Shown here in pieces: positions 7,278 through 62,837 of a stretch of DNA of 64,000 bases. A program made the translations under genes and the position numbers. The first letter of the stretch is position 1; each line of letters opens with the position of its first letter. Location of the stretch: contig JAFUTN010000034.1 of the NCBI GenBank assembly GCA_017484225.1, positions 17,844-81,843 on the forward strand. The letters are read 5' to 3'. Origin of the DNA: Alphaproteobacteria bacterium. GTDB taxonomy: Bacteria; Pseudomonadota; Alphaproteobacteria; RF32; CAG-239. The notes below the pieces were generated by a model that was not told the DNA's origin, searched no databases, and saw only the letters and a list, made by a program, of their open reading frames with translations.

Positions 7278-7411
7278 AATAACCTTAAAAAACCTGAACC
7301 GTGTTTGCGAAGAACACGGCTCAAGCGAAAGGAATTGAGTGCATGGGTACGATATGCACTCAAAGTATGACTTTATTGTTGTTTATTTTCCGGATTGGTT
7401 TCAACAACAAT

Positions 7412-7645
7412 AAAAAGAGACCGCTGACAGGCGGTCGGGAAAGTTCCAAAATCATACACAGTAATGACTCTTTCGGTCTTTAAGCAGAGCTCTGGACATA
7501 CACCGAAAGCTCCCCGACCATTAGTCAGAGATTTTCCGTCCGCATACAGACGGGGAGGAAGATGAATAACCATCTTTTCACTGTGTAAAGGCTTTGGAAA
7601 GCCCCAAGCTTTATCAGCTTTTAACATGAAATAAATTTCATGCCT
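7412..7645 (-). ncRNA. candidate structured small RNA of unknown family (about 230 nt)
   Basis: Minus-strand promoter-like TTGCAT (7674-7679), 16-nt spacer, TATATT (7652-7657). At least six hairpins follow, and a long-range pairing TACACAGT/ACTGTGTA nests around GTCGGGGA...TCCCGAC. The element ends in a strong intrinsic terminator, GACCGC-CTGTCA-GCGGTC followed by TCTTTTT (7412-7436). The overlapping 84-aa ORF has no SD and runs through the terminator. Confidence 0.4.
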
Positions 7646-7742
7646 GACGACAATATATCAGAAAAAAATTTAAATGCAATACTATTTTTAATGGTTTTTA
7701 TATTTTATGGAATAATTTTAATTGAAAAACGATTTTTCCCTC

Positions 7743-12612: not shown

Positions 12613-12657
12613 AGAAAAAATTTTATCCTGAGCAATCTATATCTTCCGATATTTTTT

Positions 12658-12940
12658 TTGACAACAAATTTTTTGTATGCTACCATTACGGCAGAATGAT
12701 TTTATATCGTTCCAGAACCTGAAAAAACGGTTCGGGGCTGTCAGAGGCTCTTTGTTCAGTGATACCAAAACAGGTATCCTTTAGGGATGCTTTTTGGTTT
12801 TAAATCCCCGCATTGGTCGGGGAGATTATGACGTATGTTCAAGCTTAATTTTTTGAGCTAAAGGTCATAATAGTCATTCCACTGAACATGATTTCTGAAC
12901 TCCCCTGACCGCTTCAAAAAATTGAGGTGGTTTTTTTTGG
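12658..12940 (+). promoter_or_regulatory. promoter plus structured leader RNA, copy A (variant), ending in an intrinsic terminator
   Basis: TTGACA (12658-12663), 17 nt, TACCAT (12681-12686). Hairpin GAACC-TGAAAAAAC-GGTTC. Helices are TGTTCAGTG/CACTGAACA, GGTCGGGGAG/CTCCCC(T)GACC and ATTATGAC/GTCATAAT. Terminator CCGCTTCAA-AAAA-TTGAGGTGG plus T8 (12909-12938) lies just upstream of the RBS GGGAGA and the ATG at 12965. Confidence 0.65.
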
Positions 12941-12964
12941 TTTTAATTTTATGGGAGAAAGAAA

Positions 12965-13921
12965 ATGAAAAAATTTAGAAACACAGGAAACGTCATTGCG
13001 ATGAGGCGTTTTAACGCCGACGTGGCAATCTCCCTCATCAAGGAAAGTATGAATAAAGAATCCTTATTTACAAGAGCCGCTTGTTTTTGGAGATTGCTAC
13101 GCCTGCGGCTCGCAATGACATTTTCTACTCTTACGTTTGTTTTGAGCCTTGGCACGGTGAGCGAATCGTGGGCGGCGTGTGTTGGGGCAACCGCCACTAC
13201 TGCCGGCACCGATGAGGACGGCGATTACTGCGGCACATGGGATTGCGGCGCTACCGGCAGCAACGTTACCTGTACCCTTTCCAAAGGCACTCTTACCATT
13301 TCCGGAGAAGGCGAAATGAAAGATTATGGTGCTAGTTGGACAGGTTGTGGAACATGCTATCCTAAATCATTGAAAACAACGGCACCTTGGAGTGGAAAAA
13401 TGGCAACTAAAGCAGTTATTGAGGGAAATGTGACCAGAATCGGAAATTTTACATTTGCCGGTGAGAGTTATTTAACCGAAATCAGAGGGACTGAAAGCCT
13501 CATTTCCATTGGTAGCTCGGCATTCAATCGCGTGGGGCTAGTGAGTATAGATATTCCAAACGTATTAACCTTAGATAATGCAGCTTTTCATAGAGCTTCT
13601 GATTTACAATATATTAATATGCGTGACGATATAATTTTAACAAATAATGATTGGTTTGGATATATGAATGGTACATTTTTAAATGTTGATGTAGTAAAAA
13701 ACTCTTGCGTTAGCAATCCGGAAACCGGCATGAAAACTTGCGGGTCATGCGGGGATAAATTTGTTCAAGCAGGTGCAGGATGTGTGGATAATTGTTTTGA
13801 CGGGTATTATGCAACAAATTATGATTTGTGCGAAAAAATCAAACTTCGTTATACCTTACCGGAAGCAGATGCGGCAACATCTGACGACAATGAAAATACG
13901 ATTGAGTGGATTTTTGAGTAA
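12965..13921 (+). CDS. secreted BspA-type LRR / Cys-rich protein with conserved C-terminal tail (paralogue 1)
   Basis: RBS GGGAGAAAG. The hydrophobic signal-like segment sits unusually far in (AMTFSTLTFVLSLGTVSESWAA). Also present: the CTLSKGTLTISGEGEMKDY module, LRR_5-like repeats, a Cys-rich stalk and the tail RYTLPEADAATSDDNENTIEWIFE. Confidence 0.8.
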   Translation: MKKFRNTGNVIAMRRFNADVAISLIKESMNKESLFTRAACFWRLLRLRLAMTFSTLTFVLSLGTVSESWAACVGATATTAGTDEDGDYCGTWDCGATGSNVTCTLSKGTLTISGEGEMKDYGASWTGCGTCYPKSLKTTAPWSGKMATKAVIEGNVTRIGNFTFAGESYLTEIRGTESLISIGSSAFNRVGLVSIDIPNVLTLDNAAFHRASDLQYINMRDDIILTNNDWFGYMNGTFLNVDVVKNSCVSNPETGMKTCGSCGDKFVQAGAGCVDNCFDGYYATNYDLCEKIKLRYTLPEADAATSDDNENTIEWIFE

Positions 13922-14082
13922 TCAGCTTGGCGAAAATTTTTCCGCTTATTCCATATCATAGTTGGGAATCCGGTCAAATTTGTCACACAACGCCTGATAG
14001 GCGGCCGCAATATTTTTGAATTTTTCTTCCGCTTCCTTGTCATCTCGGTTGATATCGGGGTGATATTTTTTTGCCAACTTTT
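13799..14082. repeat. 284-bp segmental duplication, copy 1 (partner 15158-15441)
   Basis: Near-identical to 15158-15441 at a constant offset of 1359 bp, with a handful of substitutions. It covers the last ~40 codons of the paralogue gene, the intergenic spacer and the 3' end of the J-domain gene. Confidence 0.9.
13946..14082 (-). pseudogene. relic 3' fragment of the J-domain protein gene (duplicate of the 15305-15441 region)
   Basis: The minus strand reads ...[44 protein letters not shown], matching the last ~45 residues of CDS 15305-15886. Similarity stops abruptly at 14082 and there is no start codon or N-terminal part. Confidence 0.85.
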
Positions 14083-14143
14083 AGGTACTTTTTATACCTC
14101 TACTCCTCGTGAAGCTTATATGTTGTGAACTCGCACATTTTTT

Positions 14144-14360
14144 TTGACAACAAATTTTTTTATCTTTATACTCAAAACAGAACATAAAAAGTGTTCTGAG
14201 GTGTGGAAACCTCCTAGAATAATGAAGTGCTTTATGCGCTTTTCAGTTGTGTATGCATGACTGGAAGGCGGTGTAATAAGGCTATATTAATGGTTAAATA
14301 AACCGCACTAAATTCTAGTAGTTTCCAACTTCCAGTCGCTTTTTTAAAGCGATTTTTTGT
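14144..14360 (+). promoter_or_regulatory. promoter plus structured leader RNA, copy B, ending in an intrinsic terminator
   Basis: TTGACA (14144-14149), 17 nt, TATACT (14167-14172). Hairpin GAACA-TAAAAAG-TGTTC. Helices are TGGAAAC/GTTTCCA, CTAGAAT/ATTCTAG, CTGGAAG/CTTCCAG and GCGGT/ACCGC, the last with an ATAAGGCTAT loop. Terminator is CGCTTT-TTT-AAAGCG plus T6. Confidence 0.7.
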
Positions 14361-14392
14361 TTATCAAAATTAAATGGGAAAGGAAAACTAAG

Positions 14393-15280
14393 ATGAAAAA
14401 GATAATTTTTACAGTAATAATGCTTTGCTGTATAACAATAAAATCTATTGCAGATGATTCTGCACCGACATCCGGAACTTGCAATTCTTCCGGAACCTGC
14501 TTGTGGAATCTAAGCGAAGACGGAACCCTGACAATTTCCGCCAAACCGGGGGCGGAAGACGTTAAAACGGACAATTATCGCTGTGATGATGCCAGTGTAT
14601 CAATATGTCGTGAGAGAGGAACTCTTATTGAGAGGCCTTGGGAAGCGAATCTTGAACAAATTAAAAAGGTTGTTATCGGCGATAATATTTCATACATAGG
14701 TGATGATGCCTTTCAGCTGGCTTCAAATTTAAAATCGGTTACCGGCATGAATGATTTGCAATCTATAGGAAACTACGGAGTGTTTGCCTACACCGGTTTA
14801 ACAGAGTTTACTATGCCGGAAAACATTTCTACTGTCGGTAGTCGTGCTTTTGCCTATACTCCTTCATTGAAAAATTTAATTATTCCGGACCAAATTGAAA
14901 CCATAAGTGCAGATTTCTTTCAACATTTGTCTTCCGGTGCAAATATTACGTGCTTGGGAAATATTGCCTCCTGTAATGCAAAATTGGCAAAATTTTTTAA
15001 AAAAACAGATTGCCCTGAAGGTTTTACCTGTAATTGCACAAGTAACTGCATAAAAACAAGCCAAGTAAAACCGGCATCCGAGACTCAATGTATCGGAGTA
15101 AATTATTACTGGAACGGAGTAAGCTGCGATAATAAAAAAGACGGTATAAATTGTGCCGACGGGTATTATGCAACAAATTATGATTTGTGCGAAAAAATCA
15201 AACTTCGTTATACCTTACCGGAAGCAGATGCGGCAACATCTGACGATAATGAAAATATGATTGAGTGGATTTTTGAGTAA
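14393..15280 (+). CDS. secreted BspA-type LRR / Cys-rich protein with conserved C-terminal tail (paralogue 2)
   Basis: The track ORF starts at 14357 inside the leader terminator. The likely start is ATG 14393 (RBS GGGAAAGGAAAA), giving signal peptide MKKIIFTVIMLCCITIKSIA. Also present: the GTCNSSGTCLWNLSEDGTLTISA module, LRR_5-like repeats (IGDDAFQLASNLKSV, VGSRAFAYTPSLKNLIIP), CIGVNYYWNGVSC and the tail RYTLPEADAATSDDNENMIEWIFE. Confidence 0.85.
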   Translation: MKKIIFTVIMLCCITIKSIADDSAPTSGTCNSSGTCLWNLSEDGTLTISAKPGAEDVKTDNYRCDDASVSICRERGTLIERPWEANLEQIKKVVIGDNISYIGDDAFQLASNLKSVTGMNDLQSIGNYGVFAYTGLTEFTMPENISTVGSRAFAYTPSLKNLIIPDQIETISADFFQHLSSGANITCLGNIASCNAKLAKFFKKTDCPEGFTCNCTSNCIKTSQVKPASETQCIGVNYYWNGVSCDNKKDGINCADGYYATNYDLCEKIKLRYTLPEADAATSDDNENMIEWIFE

Positions 15281-17845: not shown

Positions 17846-19270
17846 ATGGTAACTATGGCTGAAGAAGCAATACAGAATGAAAATTTTTCAATCAACCAGG
17901 AATGGGAACAAATATGTAGTCAGCTGAAAATGGAATTTGGCGAAACAGCTTTTGAAAGCTGGCTTAAACCTCTCAGTGTCGGTGATTTTAATGATGGTAT
18001 TATGAATATATGCGTTCCGACAACTTTTATGAAAAATTGGGTTATTGCACACTATTCTGACAGAATCCATAAAATTTGGGAACACAAGAATCCGGACATA
18101 AAAAAAGTATGTTTTGTTGTGCAGAACAGTGCTTCCGGTAATGTTAAGGTTGATGTATCGTTGCTCAAAAAAATTAAATCAACCCCGACTCCTCAAAGTA
18201 TATACGGTTTAAATGATGTAACGGCTCCGTGCGGTAATGACCAGTATTTGTCATCTCAGTTAAATCCGTCTTATACTTTTGAAAACTTTGTTGTCGGCAA
18301 AACAAATGAGTTTGCTTATGCTGCCGCCAAAAAAATTGCCGAATCCCGCAATGTGGCTTTTAATCCGCTGTTTTTGTATTCCGGTGTCGGATTGGGAAAA
18401 ACCCACCTGATGCACGCTATTGCATGGCATATTAAGAAACAGGATCCGAGTCGCACCGTTGTTTACATTTCGGCCGAGCAATTTTTATATAAATTCGTAA
18501 AAGCAATGCGCTATAAAGATACGGCGGCTTTTAAAGAACAATTTCGTTCGGTTGATGTCTTGATGATTGATGATGTTCAATTTTTGGCAAACAAAGTTAA
18601 GACTCAGGAAGAATTTTTCTATACTTTTGATTCTTTAATGGAAGGCGGCCGACAAATTATATTATCGGCGGACAAATCTCCAAATGATTTGGACGGCATA
18701 GAAACACGTCTAAAGTCACGTTTGAACAGCGGTTTGGTTGCCGACATTATGCCGACCGACTTTGACTTGAGAATCGGTATTTTGAACAAAAAAGCAGAGC
18801 AAATGGGAGTTAAACTTCCGCAAAATGTTGCTGATTTTCTGGCTCAAAAAATATCATCAAACATTCGTGAACTTGATGGCTCATTGAAAAGAATCGTTGC
18901 ACATTCTCAGTTGTTGCCGAGTCATGAAATTACTTTAGATATGACGCAAGAAGTGTTAAAAGATATGCTTCGTTCTTTTGAGCGCAAAACGACTATTGAT
19001 GAAATTCAGAAAAAAGTTGCTGAGTTCTACAATATTTCAGTTCGCGAAATGCAGTCGTTGCGTCGCGCCCGCAATGTGGCTCGTCCTCGTCAAATCGCCA
19101 TGTATCTCGCCAAGCAGCTGACATCTCGCTCGTTGCCGGAAATCGGCCGCAAGTTTGATCGTGATCACACGACGGTTATGCACGCGGTCAGAAAGGTTGA
19201 AGAACTGATGGTGGAAGATGCTGCTTTAGCCGAAAATATTAATGCTTTGCAAAAGGCTTTGGAAGAATAA
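17846..19270 (+). CDS. dnaA: chromosomal replication initiator protein DnaA
   Basis: AAA+ Walker A GVGLGKTHL, box VII/sensor motifs, and a C-terminal DNA-binding helix DHTTVMHA. The ATG at 17855 has better SD spacing than 17846. Confidence 0.95.
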   Translation: MVTMAEEAIQNENFSINQEWEQICSQLKMEFGETAFESWLKPLSVGDFNDGIMNICVPTTFMKNWVIAHYSDRIHKIWEHKNPDIKKVCFVVQNSASGNVKVDVSLLKKIKSTPTPQSIYGLNDVTAPCGNDQYLSSQLNPSYTFENFVVGKTNEFAYAAAKKIAESRNVAFNPLFLYSGVGLGKTHLMHAIAWHIKKQDPSRTVVYISAEQFLYKFVKAMRYKDTAAFKEQFRSVDVLMIDDVQFLANKVKTQEEFFYTFDSLMEGGRQIILSADKSPNDLDGIETRLKSRLNSGLVADIMPTDFDLRIGILNKKAEQMGVKLPQNVADFLAQKISSNIRELDGSLKRIVAHSQLLPSHEITLDMTQEVLKDMLRSFERKTTIDEIQKKVAEFYNISVREMQSLRRARNVARPRQIAMYLAKQLTSRSLPEIGRKFDRDHTTVMHAVRKVEELMVEDAALAENINALQKALEE

Positions 19271-19359
19271 AAAAATTGTTGAAGACTCTGCATTTTATCT
19301 TCTTATTTGCGACGATATTTGTTAGAGTCCGAATAGTTTAATATTTGGATGGTAAAAAG

Positions 19360-20478
19360 ATGAAATTTACGATAGAAAAATCAGTATTGTTAAAAACACT
19401 CGGACACGTTCAGAATATTGTTGAAAAACGCAATACCGTTCCGGTGCTTTCCAATGTCAGAATTGAAGCCGGCAACGACGGTATCAGTTTCAAAGCAACA
19501 GATATGGATACCGAAATCACGGAAATTGTGGATGCCGGAATTTTAGAAAACGGAGCAATTACGGCTCCGGCTCACATGCTGTATGATATTGTGCGCAAAT
19601 TGTCTGACGGTTCGGAAGTTGAACTTGTGTATCCGGATGAAAAAGAACAATTATCAATTTCTTCCGGCAGATCTAAATTTTCGTTGCCGACAATCGGTGT
19701 TGAAGATTTTCCGGTTATTTCGGCTGATGCGCTTCCAACATCATTCAGCGTAAAACGTGAAGATTTGAAAGATGTTATTGATCGCACACAATTTGCGGCA
19801 TCTACCGAAGAAACAAGATATTACTTAAACGGCTTATATATTCATCCGAAAACCGAAGGCGAAACAAAAGTGCTGCGTGTGGTTGCAACTGACGGTCACC
19901 GTTTAGCCTGTGTGGAGACTCCGCTTCCGCAGGGTGCGGAAAAAATGCAAGGAGTTATTCTGCCGCGTAAAACCGTTGCCGAAATTCGCAAGTTGCTGGA
20001 CGATTCTTCAGCGGAAGAAATCAATATTTCTTTATCAGACAGCAAAGTTCGTTTTGTGTTGGAAGACATTACTCTGGCATCAAAATTGATTGACGGAACA
20101 TATCCGGACTACGAACGCGTTAGTCCGACGGATAATGACAAGATTTTGGAACTTAATGTCAAAAATCTTTCCACTGCCGTTGATCGTGTTTCGGTAGTTG
20201 CCGAAAGAACTCGTGCCATTAAAATGATTGTTAACACCAACCATATTGTGGTTACAACATCAAGTCCGGATTTAGGAAGTGCCGTTGAAGAAATGGAGGC
20301 AAGTTACGACAGCGAATCTTTGGAAATCGGATATAATTTCCGCTATTTGTTGGATATTCTGTCCGAAATTAAAGGAGATAATGCAAAATTCAGTTTCAAA
20401 GACAGTTCTTCACCTTCAATCATTCATGATACTTCGGATTCCAGCGCAATTTATGTATTGATGCCGATGAGAGTGTAA
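19360..20478 (+). CDS. dnaN: DNA polymerase III beta sliding clamp
   Basis: MKFTIEKSVLLKTLGHVQNIVEKRNTVPVLSNV..., ending in MPMRV. The track ORF begins at TTG 19345; ATG 19360 fits the family N-terminus. Confidence 0.94.
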   Translation: MKFTIEKSVLLKTLGHVQNIVEKRNTVPVLSNVRIEAGNDGISFKATDMDTEITEIVDAGILENGAITAPAHMLYDIVRKLSDGSEVELVYPDEKEQLSISSGRSKFSLPTIGVEDFPVISADALPTSFSVKREDLKDVIDRTQFAASTEETRYYLNGLYIHPKTEGETKVLRVVATDGHRLACVETPLPQGAEKMQGVILPRKTVAEIRKLLDDSSAEEINISLSDSKVRFVLEDITLASKLIDGTYPDYERVSPTDNDKILELNVKNLSTAVDRVSVVAERTRAIKMIVNTNHIVVTTSSPDLGSAVEEMEASYDSESLEIGYNFRYLLDILSEIKGDNAKFSFKDSSSPSIIHDTSDSSAIYVLMPMRV

Positions 20479-20479
20479 G

Positions 20480-21676
20480 TTGAGTGATTTAAACGAAAGA
20501 ATAAAACAAATTACAGTCAAAAAGTCAGGTGTTACTCGCCTGACTTTATCTGACTTCAGAAATTATCAAAACTTACGAATTGAATGTGAGATGTCGCCGC
20601 TGGTTATTACCGGAGACAACGGCAGCGGAAAAACAAATATTTTGGAGGCTCTTTCTTTTCTTACTCCCGGAAGAGGTTTACGCAGCGCTAAATTGTCAGA
20701 TATTAAATGCCTGAACTCAAAATCAGAAAACGGCGGATGGTCGGTGGCTGCCGAAATTTTGAAAAATGATGAGGAATACCTTATCGGAACCGGATTGCAA
20801 AACGCAGCGGAAGAATCTGCGGAAACGGGTGAGCAAAAAATTTATAGTCGCCGTATCATAAAAATCAATCAGCAAAAAATTTCACAACAAGCGGAGTTAG
20901 GTAAATACATTTCGGCAATTTGGGTAACTCCGCAAATGGACAGATTATTTCAGGGCGGACCGCAACCACGGCGCAGTTTTTTAGACAGGCTTGTTTATGC
21001 TTTTGATTTGGAACACGCAAAGCGCACGGCAAATTTTGAACATTTGTATCGGCAATGGTTTCAACTTTTGAAATCGGGCTGCAGAGATACTAAGTGGTTG
21101 GAATCCATTGAAACGGATATGTCTTCTTTAGCGGTTGCCATCGCTGCTGCCAGACGGGAATTAATTGCTCGCTTAAACACCTTTATTCTAAATGAGCCGG
21201 ATGACATTTTTCCGGATGTTCGTTTGGAACTTGACGGACCGGCAGAAAAAATGCTGGATACGGAACCGGCAATCAAGGTTGAGGATTTTTACTTGTCTCA
21301 TTTAAAAAAGCAAAGAAACAATGTTTTATATAATGAAAGTCCTGATGGGATAAACCGCACCGACTTCAGAGTTTTTTTCCGCAAAAAAAATATGCCGGCT
21401 GATTTATGCTCTACCGGAGAGCAAAAGGCTTTGCTTATCAGCATTATTTTGGCACAAACAAAATGCCAAATTTTGGACAGAGGATTTGCTCCGATTTTGT
21501 TGCTTGACGAGGTAACCACTCATTTGGATAATCAAAAAAGAGATGCCTTACTTCAAAAAATTTCCGATTTGAGCATTCAGGCATGGATAACCTCTACCGA
21601 ACCGCAAAATTTCGGGATTTTGAAAAATAAGGCGCAATTTTTTGCTGTTCGTAATAACTCAATTTTCAGTCTTTAG
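20480..21676 (+). CDS. recF: DNA replication and repair protein RecF
   Basis: Walker A GDNGSGKTNILEA, the signature STGEQKALLISIIL, a Walker B-like LLLDEV, and the dnaA-dnaN-recF order. Confidence 0.92.
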   Translation: MSDLNERIKQITVKKSGVTRLTLSDFRNYQNLRIECEMSPLVITGDNGSGKTNILEALSFLTPGRGLRSAKLSDIKCLNSKSENGGWSVAAEILKNDEEYLIGTGLQNAAEESAETGEQKIYSRRIIKINQQKISQQAELGKYISAIWVTPQMDRLFQGGPQPRRSFLDRLVYAFDLEHAKRTANFEHLYRQWFQLLKSGCRDTKWLESIETDMSSLAVAIAAARRELIARLNTFILNEPDDIFPDVRLELDGPAEKMLDTEPAIKVEDFYLSHLKKQRNNVLYNESPDGINRTDFRVFFRKKNMPADLCSTGEQKALLISIILAQTKCQILDRGFAPILLLDEVTTHLDNQKRDALLQKISDLSIQAWITSTEPQNFGILKNKAQFFAVRNNSIFSL

Positions 21677-23213: not shown

Positions 23214-23310
23214 TAACCTGTTTAATAGAAGAAATACAACAATCAAATATAAAATACAAGAGCAAAAATACACCGGAAAAATTTTTTATTCTTCACGCCT
23301 GATTAGCATC

Positions 23311-23551
23311 TTTACAATTAAGCAAAGTTTTGCTAGAATCAGCGGCAGAGCATGAAAAAAGCATGCTTCAGGGCGTAAGAACTCTAAACAAAGATTAGTC
23401 GCGTGTATGCGATTTACAGGTTTTTACCGATATTTCGTTCTTTGTATGGACGGATGTCGGTGCGATAAGGCTATAGGCACGAAAACGCCGAGCCGTCTTT
23501 AATCTTTGTACGGTTTCTTAACATCCGCCCACCGATTTAGGTGGCTTTTTT
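23311..23551 (+). promoter_or_regulatory. promoter plus structured leader RNA, copy C, ending in an intrinsic terminator
   Basis: TTTACA (23311-23316), 17 nt, TAGAAT (23334-23339). Hairpin GCATG-AAAAAAG-CATGC is followed by TTCAGGGCG. Helices are TAAGAA/TTCTTA, ACAAAGATTA/TAATCTTTGT, GGATGT/ACATCC and CGGTG/CGCCG, the last with an ATAAGGCTAT loop. Terminator is CCACC-GATTTA-GGTGG plus CTTTTTT. Confidence 0.75.
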
Positions 23552-23586
23552 ATTAACTTTTTTGATTTAATGAAAGGATGTTTGAG

Positions 23587-24480
23587 ATGAAACATTTAAG
23601 ATTTTTGAGTTTGGTTTTGTTAACGTGCGCAAATTCTGCTACGGCAGCCGAATTGCCCTTAAGCGGCAGCTGCGGAAACGGTTGTTTATATGAAATCACC
23701 ACCAATGCAAACGGCAAAAAAGATTTGCGGGTTTATAACGCCCCGACTTATGAAGGCAAGGCATATATAGCTAATGCAGCGTTTGCAAACAGCGGTGTAA
23801 ATGTTGCCAACAATTATGAAGAATACCATGAAAATGCCGTATTTGATAAAATAACGATTGACGGAGATTTTGATATAATAGGAGGTTCCGCTTTTGAACG
23901 TAACAGAGCAACGGAAGTTGTTTTCAACGGAAAGGTTAGGGAAATAGGATATGGAGCTTTTGAACAAAACAATCTTACCTCCATTGATTTACCGGAGTCT
24001 CTTGAAAAAATCGGCGGAGAGGCTTTTCATGCAAATCCGTTAACAACTTTGGTTATTCCGGATTCGGTAACAAGTTTTGGAAGTTTTGGTAGCTCTACAT
24101 TAGTAAATGTAACAATAACAGATACGCTGGAAAGTTTGGGAACTACTTATCCGTTTGGAGGCAACAGTAATTTATCTATTGTGTGCAAAGGAGATATTGA
24201 AAAGTGCAGAAGTTTGGTCAAAAAATATCGCCCAGATAATATTTCTACTGAAATAGACCTTTCCGGAAATGTTATTGCCGCAACTTATGAGCAATGTGAC
24301 GGGCAATATTTTTGGAACGGTATAGGCTGCGTAAAAGAGCCGGATATATCAAAACGTGCCTGCTGTCCGGTGTGTGCTGATTTAGACGGCTACTGCAGCC
24401 GTATTCGTTATACCTTGCCGGAGGCTGACAAAGCAACATCTGACGATAACGAAAATATGATTGAATGGATTTTTGAGTAA
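23587..24480 (+). CDS. secreted BspA-type LRR / Cys-rich protein with conserved C-terminal tail (paralogue 3)
   Basis: Signal peptide MKHLRFLSLVLLTCANSATA; the second ATG has the better SD spacing (AAAGGA). LRR_5-like repeats (IGGSAFERNRATEVVF, IGYGAFEQNNLTSIDLPESLEKIGGEAFHANPLTTLVIPDSV), CDGQYFWNGIGC...CCPVC, and the tail RYTLPEADKATSDDNENMIEWIFE. Confidence 0.85.
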   Translation: MKHLRFLSLVLLTCANSATAAELPLSGSCGNGCLYEITTNANGKKDLRVYNAPTYEGKAYIANAAFANSGVNVANNYEEYHENAVFDKITIDGDFDIIGGSAFERNRATEVVFNGKVREIGYGAFEQNNLTSIDLPESLEKIGGEAFHANPLTTLVIPDSVTSFGSFGSSTLVNVTITDTLESLGTTYPFGGNSNLSIVCKGDIEKCRSLVKKYRPDNISTEIDLSGNVIAATYEQCDGQYFWNGIGCVKEPDISKRACCPVCADLDGYCSRIRYTLPEADKATSDDNENMIEWIFE

Positions 24481-38705: not shown

Positions 38706-39569
38706 TTATTCAAAAATCCATTCAATCATATTTTCATTGTCGTCAGATGTTGCCGCATCCGCTTCCGGCAGGGTGTAACGTTTGCGTAAACATTCGTTAT
38801 ATATGTCGTCATAAGCATAACCGGCTCCACAGCCTGTTCCTTCTCTGATGCAGGTATTATCTTTCAGCACATAGCCCGTTCCGCAGCCTTCCGTATCGTT
38901 TATACATTTCATTTCTTTGCCTAAATAACCGCTTCCGCAGTCAGAAACACATTCAGCTGATTTTACAAAACCGTCACATTTTTTAACGGTTTTTCCGCAA
39001 AGAGAAGTTCCTTGAAAATTTGTGCCGACAAAAATATTATTTGCCGGCAGATTGTTGCCACTAGCACAATTTATCGGTGCTGTTCCTTGATATAAAATCA
39101 CGGCACCGGACGGAACGGAAGTGAAAGCTCCTGTGCCGATAATTTCAACATTCGGCATCTCAACGGACTGTAAGGCAGTGCAATAAAAAAAAGAATCATA
39201 AGGTATTTCCTTAACATCTTTCATTCCCGATACGGTTTTTACGTTTGAGGCATTTTGAAATGCATTTTTGCCTATTTTGGAAATATTGTCTTTAATTACA
39301 ATGTTTTGAATTTGTTTTATATAGTCTTCCCAAGGGCGATTGCCGGCAAGAGCCGAGCAAGTTGAAGCACCTTCGCAAACATAATCATCCATAGACACAT
39401 TTTCAGTTCCTTCAGCGGCGGAAACGGTTAGCGTTCCGGAGGAATCTATTTCCCATAAGCAGGTTCCGCTTGAATTACAAGTGCCGGATACATTTGCATA
39501 AGTGTTTACGGAATACATCATTGATAAAAAAGTAAAATTAAGCAATTTAAAATGTTTCATATCAAACAT
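38706..39569 (-). CDS. secreted BspA-type LRR / Cys-rich protein with conserved C-terminal tail (paralogue 4)
   Basis: Signal peptide MKHFKLLNFTFLSMMYSVNTYA, the SGTCNSSGTCLWEIDSSGTLTVSA module, LRR_5-like repeats (IGKNAFQNASNVKTVSGM), four CxxGY Cys-rich modules, and the tail RYTLPEADAATSDDNENMIEWIFE. Confidence 0.85.
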   Translation of the reverse strand: MFDMKHFKLLNFTFLSMMYSVNTYANVSGTCNSSGTCLWEIDSSGTLTVSAAEGTENVSMDDYVCEGASTCSALAGNRPWEDYIKQIQNIVIKDNISKIGKNAFQNASNVKTVSGMKDVKEIPYDSFFYCTALQSVEMPNVEIIGTGAFTSVPSGAVILYQGTAPINCASGNNLPANNIFVGTNFQGTSLCGKTVKKCDGFVKSAECVSDCGSGYLGKEMKCINDTEGCGTGYVLKDNTCIREGTGCGAGYAYDDIYNECLRKRYTLPEADAATSDDNENMIEWIFE

Positions 39570-39593
39570 CCTTTCATTAAGTTAAAAAGTTAA

Positions 39594-39825
39594 CAAAAAA
39601 GCCACCTGAAATGGTGGGCGGATGTTGAGAAACCGTACTAAACTAAACGGCTCGGCGTTTTCGCGCTCATAGCCTTATCAAGCCGACATCCGCTCAAATT
39701 TGAACGAATCATCGGAAAAATATTTAATGCCGTGTTGCGGCAAGTTTAGTAAAGGGTTCTCACGCCCTGAAGTGCGTTTTTTCGCACTCTGAAATCAGGT
39801 TATCAAAATATCGCCGTAATGTAAA
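39594..39825 (-). promoter_or_regulatory. promoter plus structured leader RNA, copy D, ending in an intrinsic terminator
   Basis: On the minus strand: TTTACA (39820-39825), 17 nt, TAACCT (39797-39802). Hairpin AGTGCG-AAAAAA-CGCACT is followed by TCAGGGCG. Helices are TGAGAA/TTCTCA, TACTAAAC/GTTTAGTA, GGATGT/ACATCC and CGGC/GCCG, the last with an ATAAGGCTAT loop. Terminator is CCACC-ATTTCA-GGTGG plus CTTTTTT. Confidence 0.75.
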
Positions 39826-44740: not shown

Positions 44741-44769
44741 TTTGTGTCCTTTTAACCATAAAGTTTAAG

Positions 44770-61701: not shown

Positions 61702-61706
61702 AAATC

Positions 61707-61930
61707 TTTACAATCAAACATTGTTCTGCTATTGTTCATTCAGGACGTGGAAAAAACACGTTTCAGGGCGTAGTAACCCTTATACATGAATTTAGCGATA
61801 TTTAATCGTGCTGATGTTCGCATATTTTGTGAGCGGATGTCAGCCGAATAAGGCTATGCCAAATAGGCTGAGCCGTTTTCATGTATACGGTTTACTAACA
61901 TCCGCCCGCCATTTCGGTGGGATTTTTTTT
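61707..61930 (+). promoter_or_regulatory. promoter plus structured leader RNA, copy E, ending in an intrinsic terminator
   Basis: TTTACA (61707-61712), 17 nt, TATTGT (61730-61735). Hairpin ACGTG-GAAAAAA-CACGT is followed by TTCAGGGCG. Helices are TAGTAA/TTACTA, TATACATGAA/TTCATGTATA, GGATGT/ACATCC and CAGCC/GGCTG, the last with an ATAAGGCTAT loop. Terminator is CCCGCC-ATTTC-GGTGGG plus AT8. Confidence 0.75.
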
Positions 61931-61964
61931 GTTAACTTTTTACTTTAAGAAAAGGATGTATGAA

Positions 61965-62837
61965 ATGAGATATTGCATTTTGGGGATTTTAAGTTTGTTT
62001 TTTACGATTGGGCAGGCAAATGCCGAGGTTATAAGCTGCAATAACGGCAAATATGCGGACGGGACGGATTGTGTGTCCTGCGGAGCGGATTGTAACTGGA
62101 GTGTGGACTTGACAAGCGGAAAGCTTACGGTCAGCGGAAGCGGAAATATGAATAATTACCGTTTTTATACGGAAGATGACATAAATTATTCGTCCGCGCC
62201 GTGGGGAGGCTATAAAGACCGGATTACAGCAGTAGAGGTATCCGGAATGAACAGTATAGGTTCGTGTGCATTCTGCCATTTAGCTGTCAACAGCATACAA
62301 ATGGATGATTCCGTTAAAAAAATAAATGACAGCGCTTTCGCATGGAATGGTCGCGGTGCATCATCTGTTACTATGTCCGACGCATTAACGGATTTAGGCC
62401 ATATTGCTTTCAGAGGAAACAGCAGACTTAATACCCTTATCGTGCCGGCAACGTTAACGAATATCGGTTTAGGAGCGTTGGGTGGCAATAAAAACTTAAT
62501 CAAAGATATGAACATAGTATGTATGGGCGGCAAGCAAGAATGTGCATTGTTGCAAGAACGTTTACAAAACTATCAATTTTACGGTCTTGATTATTCAAGG
62601 GAGGTTTTGGACTTGTCCGCCAACGTAAGACTTGCCGGTGCCGAGGAATGTTTTTCAACAAATTATTATTGGAACGGGGCCGAATGTTTGAAAGAACCGG
62701 TATTGGCAAATCGTTTGTGTTGTCCGGAGTGTAAGATGATTGACGGAGAGTGTTACCGTGTTCGTTATACTTTGCCGGAAGCGGATGAGGTGACGTCCAA
62801 TGATAATGAGAATCTGATTGAATGGATATTTAATTAA
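61965..62837 (+). CDS. secreted BspA-type LRR / Cys-rich protein with conserved C-terminal tail (paralogue 5)
   Basis: The track start at 61917 lies inside the leader terminator. The likely start is ATG 61965 or 61956 (AAAAGGA), giving signal peptide MRYCILGILSLFFTIGQANA. Also present: the CGADCNWSVDLTSGKLTVSGSGNMNNY module, LRR_5-like repeats, CFSTNYYWNGAEC...CCPEC and the tail RYTLPEADEVTSNDNENLIEWIFN. Confidence 0.85.
   Translation: MRYCILGILSLFFTIGQANAEVISCNNGKYADGTDCVSCGADCNWSVDLTSGKLTVSGSGNMNNYRFYTEDDINYSSAPWGGYKDRITAVEVSGMNSIGSCAFCHLAVNSIQMDDSVKKINDSAFAWNGRGASSVTMSDALTDLGHIAFRGNSRLNTLIVPATLTNIGLGALGGNKNLIKDMNIVCMGGKQECALLQERLQNYQFYGLDYSREVLDLSANVRLAGAEECFSTNYYWNGAECLKEPVLANRLCCPECKMIDGECYRVRYTLPEADEVTSNDNENLIEWIFN

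Follow-up and report, generated by a model that had tools for sequence, protein, structure and literature searches.

The stretch of DNA analysed here (the window, 64 kb at its full length) lies on a 116.7-kb scaffold of a ruminant gut metagenome (ENA ERZ28655160) and belongs to an alphaproteobacterium. Six copies of a structured leader element can be detected in it, five of which (copies A to E) each lie 5′ of a gene for a leucine-rich repeat (LRR) protein. The analysis centres on copy B (14144–14360), referred to below as leader B, which is located directly 5′ of the gene for a 295-amino-acid (aa) BspA-type LRR protein.

Organization and conservation of leader B

Leader B is a conserved pseudoknotted RNA that has its own promoter, two mutually exclusive pairings of one strand (d) that both covary, a short terminator overlapping one of these pairings (d:h), and a word complementary to a Shine-Dalgarno (SD) sequence (anti-SD word); its parts are listed in order in Table 1. 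The leader is ∼190 nucleotides (nt) long, and its predicted minimum free energy (MFE) structure, at -62.2 kcal/mol, is far more stable than those of dinucleotide shuffles (-39.1 ± 3.8 kcal/mol; z = -6.1; 0/200 as good). The MFE structure holds the helices b-g, c-f and e and the terminator, together with a long-range pairing of strand a with ACTTC (a:h′). Strand f sits in the loop of the k hairpin, for which equivalents are found in copy C (AGCCGT/ACGGTT) and copy A (AGTCAT/ATGATT), and c-f is therefore a loop-strand pseudoknot relative to that hairpin. On the minus strand, P0 of copy B (14178–14198) is likewise picked up as an intrinsic terminator, probably incidentally, since no gene of that strand has its end there.

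Covariation was assessed in alignments of 117–123 sequences, principally a MAFFT alignment of 117 distinct elements of the same subtype as leader B (B type; alignment A4) and a model-guided alignment of 119 distinct elements of the B type and of the related C type (alignment A9); all B-type counts given here refer to the matches listed in the pattern search described below. On A4, the nested structure comprising P0, a:h′, b-g, c-f, i, anti-d:d, e and the terminator is 84.9% paired, compared with 72.2% in column shuffles (0/500 as good), a control that ignores phylogeny, and 36–45% when partners are slid. The corresponding figures on A9, which leans towards the structure used for its fitting, are 94.0%, 68.6% (0/500 as good) and 36–47%, with a covariation score of 0.69 versus 0.22, and a mixed alignment of B and C elements is 91.9% paired compared with 64.9% when shuffled. 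All six pairs of P0 and all seven stem pairs of the terminator covary on A4, as does every pair but one in e (96.7% paired). Helix b-g is ∼98% paired and has six covarying pairs with double changes, and c-f is 95–98% paired, every position showing all four Watson-Crick pair types. G-U pairs occur often (111/117 at one position, for example), and the structure therefore belongs to the sense RNA strand and not to the DNA.

Strand d has two alternative partners. Its pairing with anti-d is 84–91% paired with three to five covarying pairs, that with h is 98.5–99.7% paired with four to five, and the d columns covary with both partners; likewise, the last two columns of h (A4 columns 332–333) covary not only with d but also with the terminator 3′ arm (T3′). 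This double covariation points to a chain of overlapping alternatives, namely anti-d:d, then d:h, then the terminator stem in which the end of h and the 5′ arm (h/T5′) face T3′. Three pairings to which A9 had not been fitted, d:h (98.5%, five covarying pairs), k (98.9%) and a local hairpin a:a* (97.8%), pair equally well, k showing double changes in the C-type rows and a:a* (97.8–97.9% paired overall) having double changes as well. Where a is mutated (L050, L084, L085 and L109), a* changes along with it and the invariant h′ does not, so that on this comparative evidence the local hairpin is better supported than the long-range a:h′ pair.

The i hairpin is 89% paired in the covariance model alignment. 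The form of it specific to leader B, in contrast, is 33% paired as aligned and was rejected as a conserved feature, most relatives having a different, larger hairpin (CGTCT/AGACG). In most B-type relatives (e.g., L032:1965–2112 and L037:4888–5041) the loop of that larger hairpin, GTGTA, is complementary to TGCAC just 5′ of anti-d, and the two words change together (ATGTA/TGCAT, GTATA/TATAC), which suggests a further pseudoknot that would be reduced in copy B to a simple GTGC/GCGC hairpin.

Table 1. Features of leader B and the other leader copies in the window. R1 and R2 are the covariance models described in the text.
Feature	Position	Strand	Sequence and remarks
Sigma-70-type promoter of leader B	14144–14172	+	TTGACA, 17-nt spacer, TATACT; 11/12 consensus matches, the sole strong one in the consensus scan
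P0 hairpin (5′ end, A-rich loop)	14179–14197	+	AGAACA/TGTTCT; GAACA 14180–14184, TGTTC 14192–14196
Strand a (GAGGT)	14198–14202	+	Partner is ACTTC (h′, 14328–14332) or the local a* (CCTC, 14210–14213)
Strand b (TGGAAAC)	14204–14210	+	In the loop between a and a*; partner is g (GTTTCCA, 14321–14327)
Strand c (CTAGAAT)	14214–14220	+	Partner is f (ATTCTAG, 14312–14318)
i hairpin (small, variable)	14225–14241	+	AAGTGC/GCGCTT; a larger CGTCT/AGACG hairpin in most relatives
Anti-d (CTTTTCAGT)	14239–14247	+	Alternative partner of d; present in MFE and centroid structures
Strand d (GACTGGAAGG)	14259–14268	+	(GA)CTGGAAG at 14259–14267; SD-like word; partner is anti-d or h
e hairpin	14268–14306	+	GCGGT 14268–14272/ACCGC 14302–14306; internal loop with conserved (A)AUAAG in the 5′ strand and AAUA in the 3′ strand
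ATAAGGCTAT within the e hairpin	14276–14285	+	Exact word also in copies C, D and E
k hairpin	14307–14322	+	ACTA/TAGT; f (14312–14318) in the loop
Strands g and h	14321–14337	+	g, GTTTCCA, 14321–14327; h, AACTTCCAGTC, CTTCCAG(TC), 14329–14337; h is partner of d and anti-SD word, its last 2 nt form the base of the terminator stem
Intrinsic terminator	14334–14358	+	Stem 14334–14354, TCGCTTT/AAAGCGA, and T6 run; from terminator scan
Ribosome binding region and regulated LRR gene	14376–15280	+	GGGAAAGGAAAA; start codon 14393; signal peptide; Pfam LRR_5, E = 2e-17
Copy A (A subtype)	12655–12964	+	Upstream of LRR gene 12965–13921; R2 19.1 bits, E = 0.004, full model length
Copy C (C subtype)	23310–23586	+	R1 15.4 bits, E = 0.02; R2 81.6 bits (copy C lies outside the R2 training set)
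Copy D (C subtype)	39561–39825	-	R1 30 bits, E = 1e-6
Copy E (C subtype)	61703–61964	+	R1 46.7 bits, E = 2e-11; likely gene start codon 61965
Sixth copy (orphan, A-like)	7410–7690	-	Own promoter and terminator; R1 16.8 bits, E = 0.008 (7430–7607); R2 20.5 bits, E = 0.0015

A leader family with three subtypes

Homologues of the LRR proteins occur in many records labelled "MAG: Alphaproteobacteria bacterium" (MAG, metagenome-assembled genome), and the contigs that encode them carry leaders of one architecture in three subtypes, A (like copy A), B (like copy B) and C (like copies C, D and E). Near-identical B leaders are present in sister strains and diverged ones in NCBI assembly GCA_045602545.1. 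A protein-guided search with the LRR alignment yielded no related loci in the genome or metagenome contig collections. A scan of species-representative genomes with an RNA pattern based on three B-type copies detected at least 119 stretches, almost all of them in MAGs of uncultured gut Alphaproteobacteria (from ruminants, rabbit and human); B is therefore a widespread subtype and not an aberrant copy. In most family members a TTGACA or TTTACA and a −10-like box are found at the promoter position.

The relationship among subtypes was examined with covariance models. The first (R1) was built from 60 B-type cores of other genomes only, leaving out the window and its near-identical relatives, and was run against the window with filters off. 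It recovered leader B at 14196–14340 (94 bits, E = 5.9e-25, model positions 1–146 of 146), and its matches to B, E, D, the orphan, C and A all span the whole model, that to copy A (7.3 bits) being not significant. R1 also finds all nine other C-type copies tested in related contigs, at 12–51 bits, and a second model trained on the B and C types (R2) reaches copy A and the orphan copy as well. Since the B-only model aligns C-type copies end to end at significant E-values, B and C–E are, by sequence and predicted structure, members of the same superfamily with one shared architecture.

These results bear on the preliminary description of leader B, in which it was proposed that this copy keeps the architecture of C–E with almost entirely different helix sequences, as would be expected from selection on RNA structure. 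Each of the helices listed there for copy B (P0, b-g, c-f, d-h, e and the terminator) can be located at 14144–14360, the fold of the leader and the pairing across its family exceed the shuffle controls given above, and the R1 alignments of E, D and C place B with these copies. Selection on RNA structure is likewise borne out, both by the covariation and by the many G-U pairs, whose counterparts on the opposite strand would be C-A mismatches. The extent of divergence had been overstated: about half of the helix positions do differ, but B is 47% identical to D and E by structure-guided alignment (47–55% in paired columns), D and E themselves being 59% identical overall. Two other proposals were not upheld. 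The GGGCG/CGCCC pairing of C–E, thought to be missing from B, has a positional equivalent in the GAGGT/ACTTC pair of the MFE structure, which lies within a helix with 98% pairing in the B family; and a switching mechanism that differs between subtypes is not supported, the switch elements being common to both: the choice of d between anti-d and h, an h that extends 2 nt into the terminator stem, and the complementarity of h to the SD. Three further parts were absent from the earlier list: the f-bearing k hairpin, strand anti-d, and the hairpin formed locally by a and a*.

The genes that follow B-type leaders in other genomes are diverse in family. For 102 of the 122 B-type matches listed, a same-strand open reading frame (ORF) of ≥100 aa begins ≤260 nt (mostly 23–80 nt) past the end of h, and many of the other 20 matches lie at the end of a locus. 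Among 86 complete ORFs scanned 3′ of B-type elements (85 in other genomes plus the B gene of the window) were outer membrane protein (OMP) beta-barrels (12/86), type IV pilin-like proteins with PilS or Bundlin N-termini (11/86), opacity-type porins (9/86), LRR_5 proteins (7/86), Surface_Ag_2 proteins (6/86) and several glycosyltransferases. The common theme of these genes is the cell surface and envelope. One locus (L012:4380–5040) contains a tandem duplication of promoter, B-type leader and first 17 codons, with the two leaders 200 nt apart; a tandem riboswitch was considered for this region (L012:4456–4929) and ruled out, the duplication including the first 17 codons of the gene.

In the window, the orphan copy has a promoter (TTGCAT...TATATT) and a terminator (GACCGC/GCGGTC followed by a T-run), lies after the stop codon of polA and has no same-strand gene downstream. 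An 84-aa ORF (7373–7627, minus strand) carries a gene call in related contigs and probably corresponds to this orphan leader RNA. All five LRR paralogs end in a near-invariant tail, RYTLPEADAATSDDNENMIEWIFE, formed by the C-terminal 24 aa (13850–13921, 15209–15280, 24409–24480, 38706–38777 on the minus strand, and 62766–62837), and a related tail, YTPAEA...DN.N...ITFKK, ends leader-linked proteins of other genomes; it has the look of a so far undescribed C-terminal tag for sorting or secretion. In a sister strain (L002:10001–10897) a protein 92% identical to the B-linked LRR protein of the window (14393–15280) is found behind an A-type leader, suggesting that surface-protein cassettes may be shuffled between leaders.

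Searches of the window with Rfam 15 at gathering thresholds gave only transfer-messenger RNA (tmRNA) and 6S RNA, and no riboswitch class, the cyclic di-GMP (c-di-GMP) classes I and II included; E-value scans of the regions of B (14000–14500) and A returned chance-level matches only. The two RNAs detected are a two-piece permuted alpha-type tmRNA (44765–45102, minus strand) and 6S RNA (51531–51687, minus strand), which identify the organism as an alphaproteobacterium. A dnaA-dnaN-recF cluster is also present (17846–21676), and the window therefore probably spans the region of the replication origin.

A putative conformational switch and its alternatives

Strand h is complementary to the ribosome binding word of the gene downstream, and this match is specific to each subtype. 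In the B type, where h is AACTTCC, the word GGAAG lies 5–9 nt 5′ of the start codon in 63 of 117 loci, compared with a background of 8% (p = 2e-27), and extends to GGAAGT in 47 of these 63 and to GGAAGTT in 32. C-type leaders have AACATCC as h and are followed by GGATGT in 11/12 loci (background 1%; p = 2e-18), and A-type leaders have AACTCCCC and GGAG or GGGAG downstream. Because the SD word of each subtype is the complement of its own h, d can be regarded as an SD mimic and h as an anti-SD sequence. The distance from terminator to start codon is 30–40 nt, which leaves no room for a second promoter.

Copy B probably represents a cis-acting 5′ leader RNA of ∼190 nt, transcribed from its own promoter, that would switch between conformations 5′ of a gene for a surface protein. 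In the predicted OFF state anti-d:d and the full terminator would form and transcription would stop; in any read-through transcripts the free h could additionally mask the SD sequence. In the ON state d, the SD mimic, would capture h, with the result that the bottom two base pairs of the terminator are lost and h is kept off the SD. The median energies of the elements are -8.3 kcal/mol for the anti-d:d hairpin and -6.7 kcal/mol for the full terminator, compared with -13.4 kcal/mol for the d:h duplex and -2.1 kcal/mol for the terminator less its two bottom pairs; the sums for the two states are roughly equal, and the states are therefore energetically balanced. The likely sensor would be the three-way junction formed by d:h, e and k, locked by the long-range helices b:g and c:f. 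A diffusible signal is the favoured guess for the input, in which case the leader would be a riboswitch; the alternative is an RNA-binding protein.

Several observations weigh against this model. The overlap between d:h and the terminator stem amounts to only 2 bp, and in copy B itself the complementarity between h and the SD is limited to ∼4 nt (GGAA). The a:h′ pairing is without compensatory change and competes with the covarying a:a*. Helices b:g and c:f may coexist with d:h and k as a double pseudoknot or may alternate with them, the sequences being compatible with both arrangements. The search pattern fixed the words GGAAGG, AATAAG, CACTA and AACTTCC, so that their invariance in the B set is partly imposed; ATAAGG is invariant in the C type too. 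Conserved words that are specific to a subtype are unusual for an aptamer with a single ligand, and both the orphan copy and sRNA-Xcc1, an experimentally detected 88-nt small RNA (sRNA), show that RNAs of this sort can be free transcripts.

A narrower version of this model holds that the d:h/e/k junction and the pseudoknots would make up an aptamer whose ligand, a metabolite or a second messenger, coordinates the surface proteome. A small-molecule riboswitch of this kind is quite possible without being the expected outcome. The conserved pseudoknotted core is complex and includes conserved unpaired nucleotides (AUAAG and AAUA in the internal loop of e, and AAC before h), it is attached to a platform comprising terminator and SD, and many copies are present per genome 5′ of genes for pilins, OMPs, adhesin-like LRR proteins and glycosyltransferases. 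As in riboswitches generally, a conserved structured domain is coupled to an expression platform whose helices exclude one another, and the leader regulon resembles those of c-di-GMP riboswitches. However, no Rfam riboswitch model matches, most of the conserved words differ among the three subtypes, the gene context, which lacks biosynthesis or transport genes, points to no ligand, and the region beside anti-d is highly variable.

A rather unlikely alternative is antitermination dependent on a protein or sRNA, in which a trans-acting factor decides between anti-d:d and d:h, either by binding P0 or the internal loop of e or, in the case of an sRNA, by pairing with anti-d. Surface-gene regulons such as this one are also known from RfaH/UpxY-type systems, the subtype-specific conserved sequences could suit paralogous binding factors, and the conserved P0 hairpin is placed directly at the start of the transcript. 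The sequence of the P0 loop is not conserved, however, the loci inspected contain no candidate protein gene linked to the elements, and the conserved structure is far larger than the typical targets of protein-binding antiterminators. The word GGCGGTA in leader B, which resembles the ops word, was considered as an ops/RfaH-like element and rejected, being one strand of the freely covarying helix e.

It is improbable that the element is instead a stand-alone, trans-acting sRNA gene similar to sRNA-Xcc1 and only incidentally upstream of genes. The orphan copy, with its promoter, its terminator and no downstream gene, would fit such a role, as would the detection of sRNA-Xcc1 as a discrete transcript (PMC2996969) and the resemblance of the C-type elements and one B-like element to its Rfam family (RF02221) at 25–40 bits. 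On the other hand, a same-strand gene follows five of the six window copies and most of the 122 B-type matches, the gene has no room for a separate promoter, and the subtype-specific match of h and d to the downstream SD is a feature expected of a cis-acting leader.

It is very improbable that the upstream block and the invariant LRR 3′ ends form a DNA-level recombination handle for cassette shuffling with incidental hairpins: LRR cassettes do switch leaders in related strains and the paralogs have the C-terminal 24 aa in common, but the hundreds of compensatory double changes, the frequent strand-specific G-U pairs, the unrelated downstream families (pilins, OMPs, glycosyltransferases) and an inter-subtype identity of only ∼47% speak for selection at the RNA level. 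Attenuation of the trp type through a leader peptide can scarcely be maintained, since, although copy C has an ATG AAA AAA GCA TGC TTC AGG GCG TAA reading frame across P0 and the pairing logic is like the 1:2/2:3/3:4 scheme of the trp attenuator, copy D and L006 have lost either the frame or the start codon, and the commonest ATG-ORF start column is used by only 25/117 B-type elements, which rules out a conserved leader peptide.

Relation to known RNA regulators and significance

The known RNA closest to the leaders described here is sRNA-Xcc1 (RF02221), an 88-nt transcript of integron cassettes that is often located upstream of symE and is without an established mechanism (PMC2996969, PMC12444791). 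In common with Xcc1, the leaders contain a three-way junction in which d:h corresponds to the closing helix, e to a hairpin with an A-rich internal loop and inner stem, and k to a second hairpin, accompanied by a short joining strand and a U-run; these helices are 96.7–98.9% paired on A9, and Rfam alignments map them onto the three helices of Xcc1. Scores remain below the gathering score of 53 bits, at 27.4 bits for copy C, 30.1 for L011, 25.2 for L008 and 39.7 for the B-like L039:1289–1369. Copies A and B gave no Xcc1 match in Rfam scans (the B region at E <= 10), and R1 found no real match (8.8 bits) in a true Xcc1 locus of a Pseudomonas plasmid.

Differences from Xcc1 are also apparent in size, context and described function. 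The leaders are twice as long, having a 5′ domain made up of P0, a, b, c, i and anti-d, and lie 5′ of core surface genes on a chromosomal alphaproteobacterial contig, whereas Xcc1 is an integron cassette RNA of Xanthomonas and other beta- and gammaproteobacteria described as trans-acting. Because A and B are without an Xcc1 match and R1 misses true Xcc1, the relationship is best described as a resemblance, with possible distant homology of the 3′ domain, and not as membership.

The true Xcc1 locus used for comparison (L135:1086–1320, 72.6 bits; P. aeruginosa plasmid NZ_CP093017) lies 38 nt upstream of a BRO-family gene and carries GGTTTCTTAACTCCCGAC, close to the g and h strands of C and A. 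Words complementary to its g strand and k-loop, similar to b and c, are found ∼90 nt upstream, and its k-loop, CTCTGCTTG, has a complement in CAAGCAGAG, a word overlapping the SD of that BRO-family gene. These complementarities raise the prospect that Xcc1 may itself act in cis; in the literature searched, nothing relevant was found on Xcc1 as a cis element or riboswitch.

With riboswitch and attenuator platforms, the leaders share a structured, putative sensor domain joined to an intrinsic terminator, mutually exclusive conserved helices, predicted SD masking, and occurrence in many copies 5′ of surface and adhesion genes, the latter recalling c-di-GMP riboswitches, which lie upstream of pilin and adhesin genes. 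They differ from the known riboswitch classes in matching none of those in Rfam by sequence or structure and in having three subtypes with different core words within one genome. The overlapping alternatives anti-d:d, d:h and h+T5′:T3′, each supported by covariation, are like those of the trp attenuator; unlike that system there is no conserved leader peptide, and the decision is therefore not made by a translating ribosome. The Brt RNAs of Bartonella are multi-copy, ∼200-nt structured RNAs with terminators that are found immediately 5′ of genes in an alphaproteobacterium and have been associated with surface adhesin control. They differ from the leaders in sequence, in host clade and in their downstream genes, which encode DNA-binding proteins.

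No description of the leader family was found in the literature searched. The family is large, has no match in Rfam 15 and is new within the known class of attenuator and riboswitch-like leaders; its unusual features are the double loop-strand pseudoknot design and the subtype-matched triad of SD, anti-SD and SD mimic. Strong covariation, many copies (six in the 64 kb of the window) and a position 5′ of pilin, porin, adhesin-like and glycosyltransferase genes mark the family out as a strong candidate global regulatory element. Gut and rumen Alphaproteobacteria of this kind are known from MAGs alone, and the family may bear on how their host-facing surface structures are regulated. It also provides a well-defined target for a ligand or partner search, the alignments and the two alternative folds yielding testable mutants, and it allows probable mis-annotated "genes," among them the 84-aa ORF that overlies the orphan copy, to be flagged as RNA.

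More tentatively, the A, B and C leaders might represent sub-classes of a new riboswitch-like sensor, present many times per genome and coordinately gating transcription termination and translation across the surface proteome (type IV pilins, OMPs, LRR adhesins and glycosyltransferases), with a signal that could be a second messenger and a junction core homologous to sRNA-Xcc1. If this were so, sRNA-Xcc1 would have to be reread as the sensor domain of a cis-acting switch and not as a purely trans-acting sRNA.

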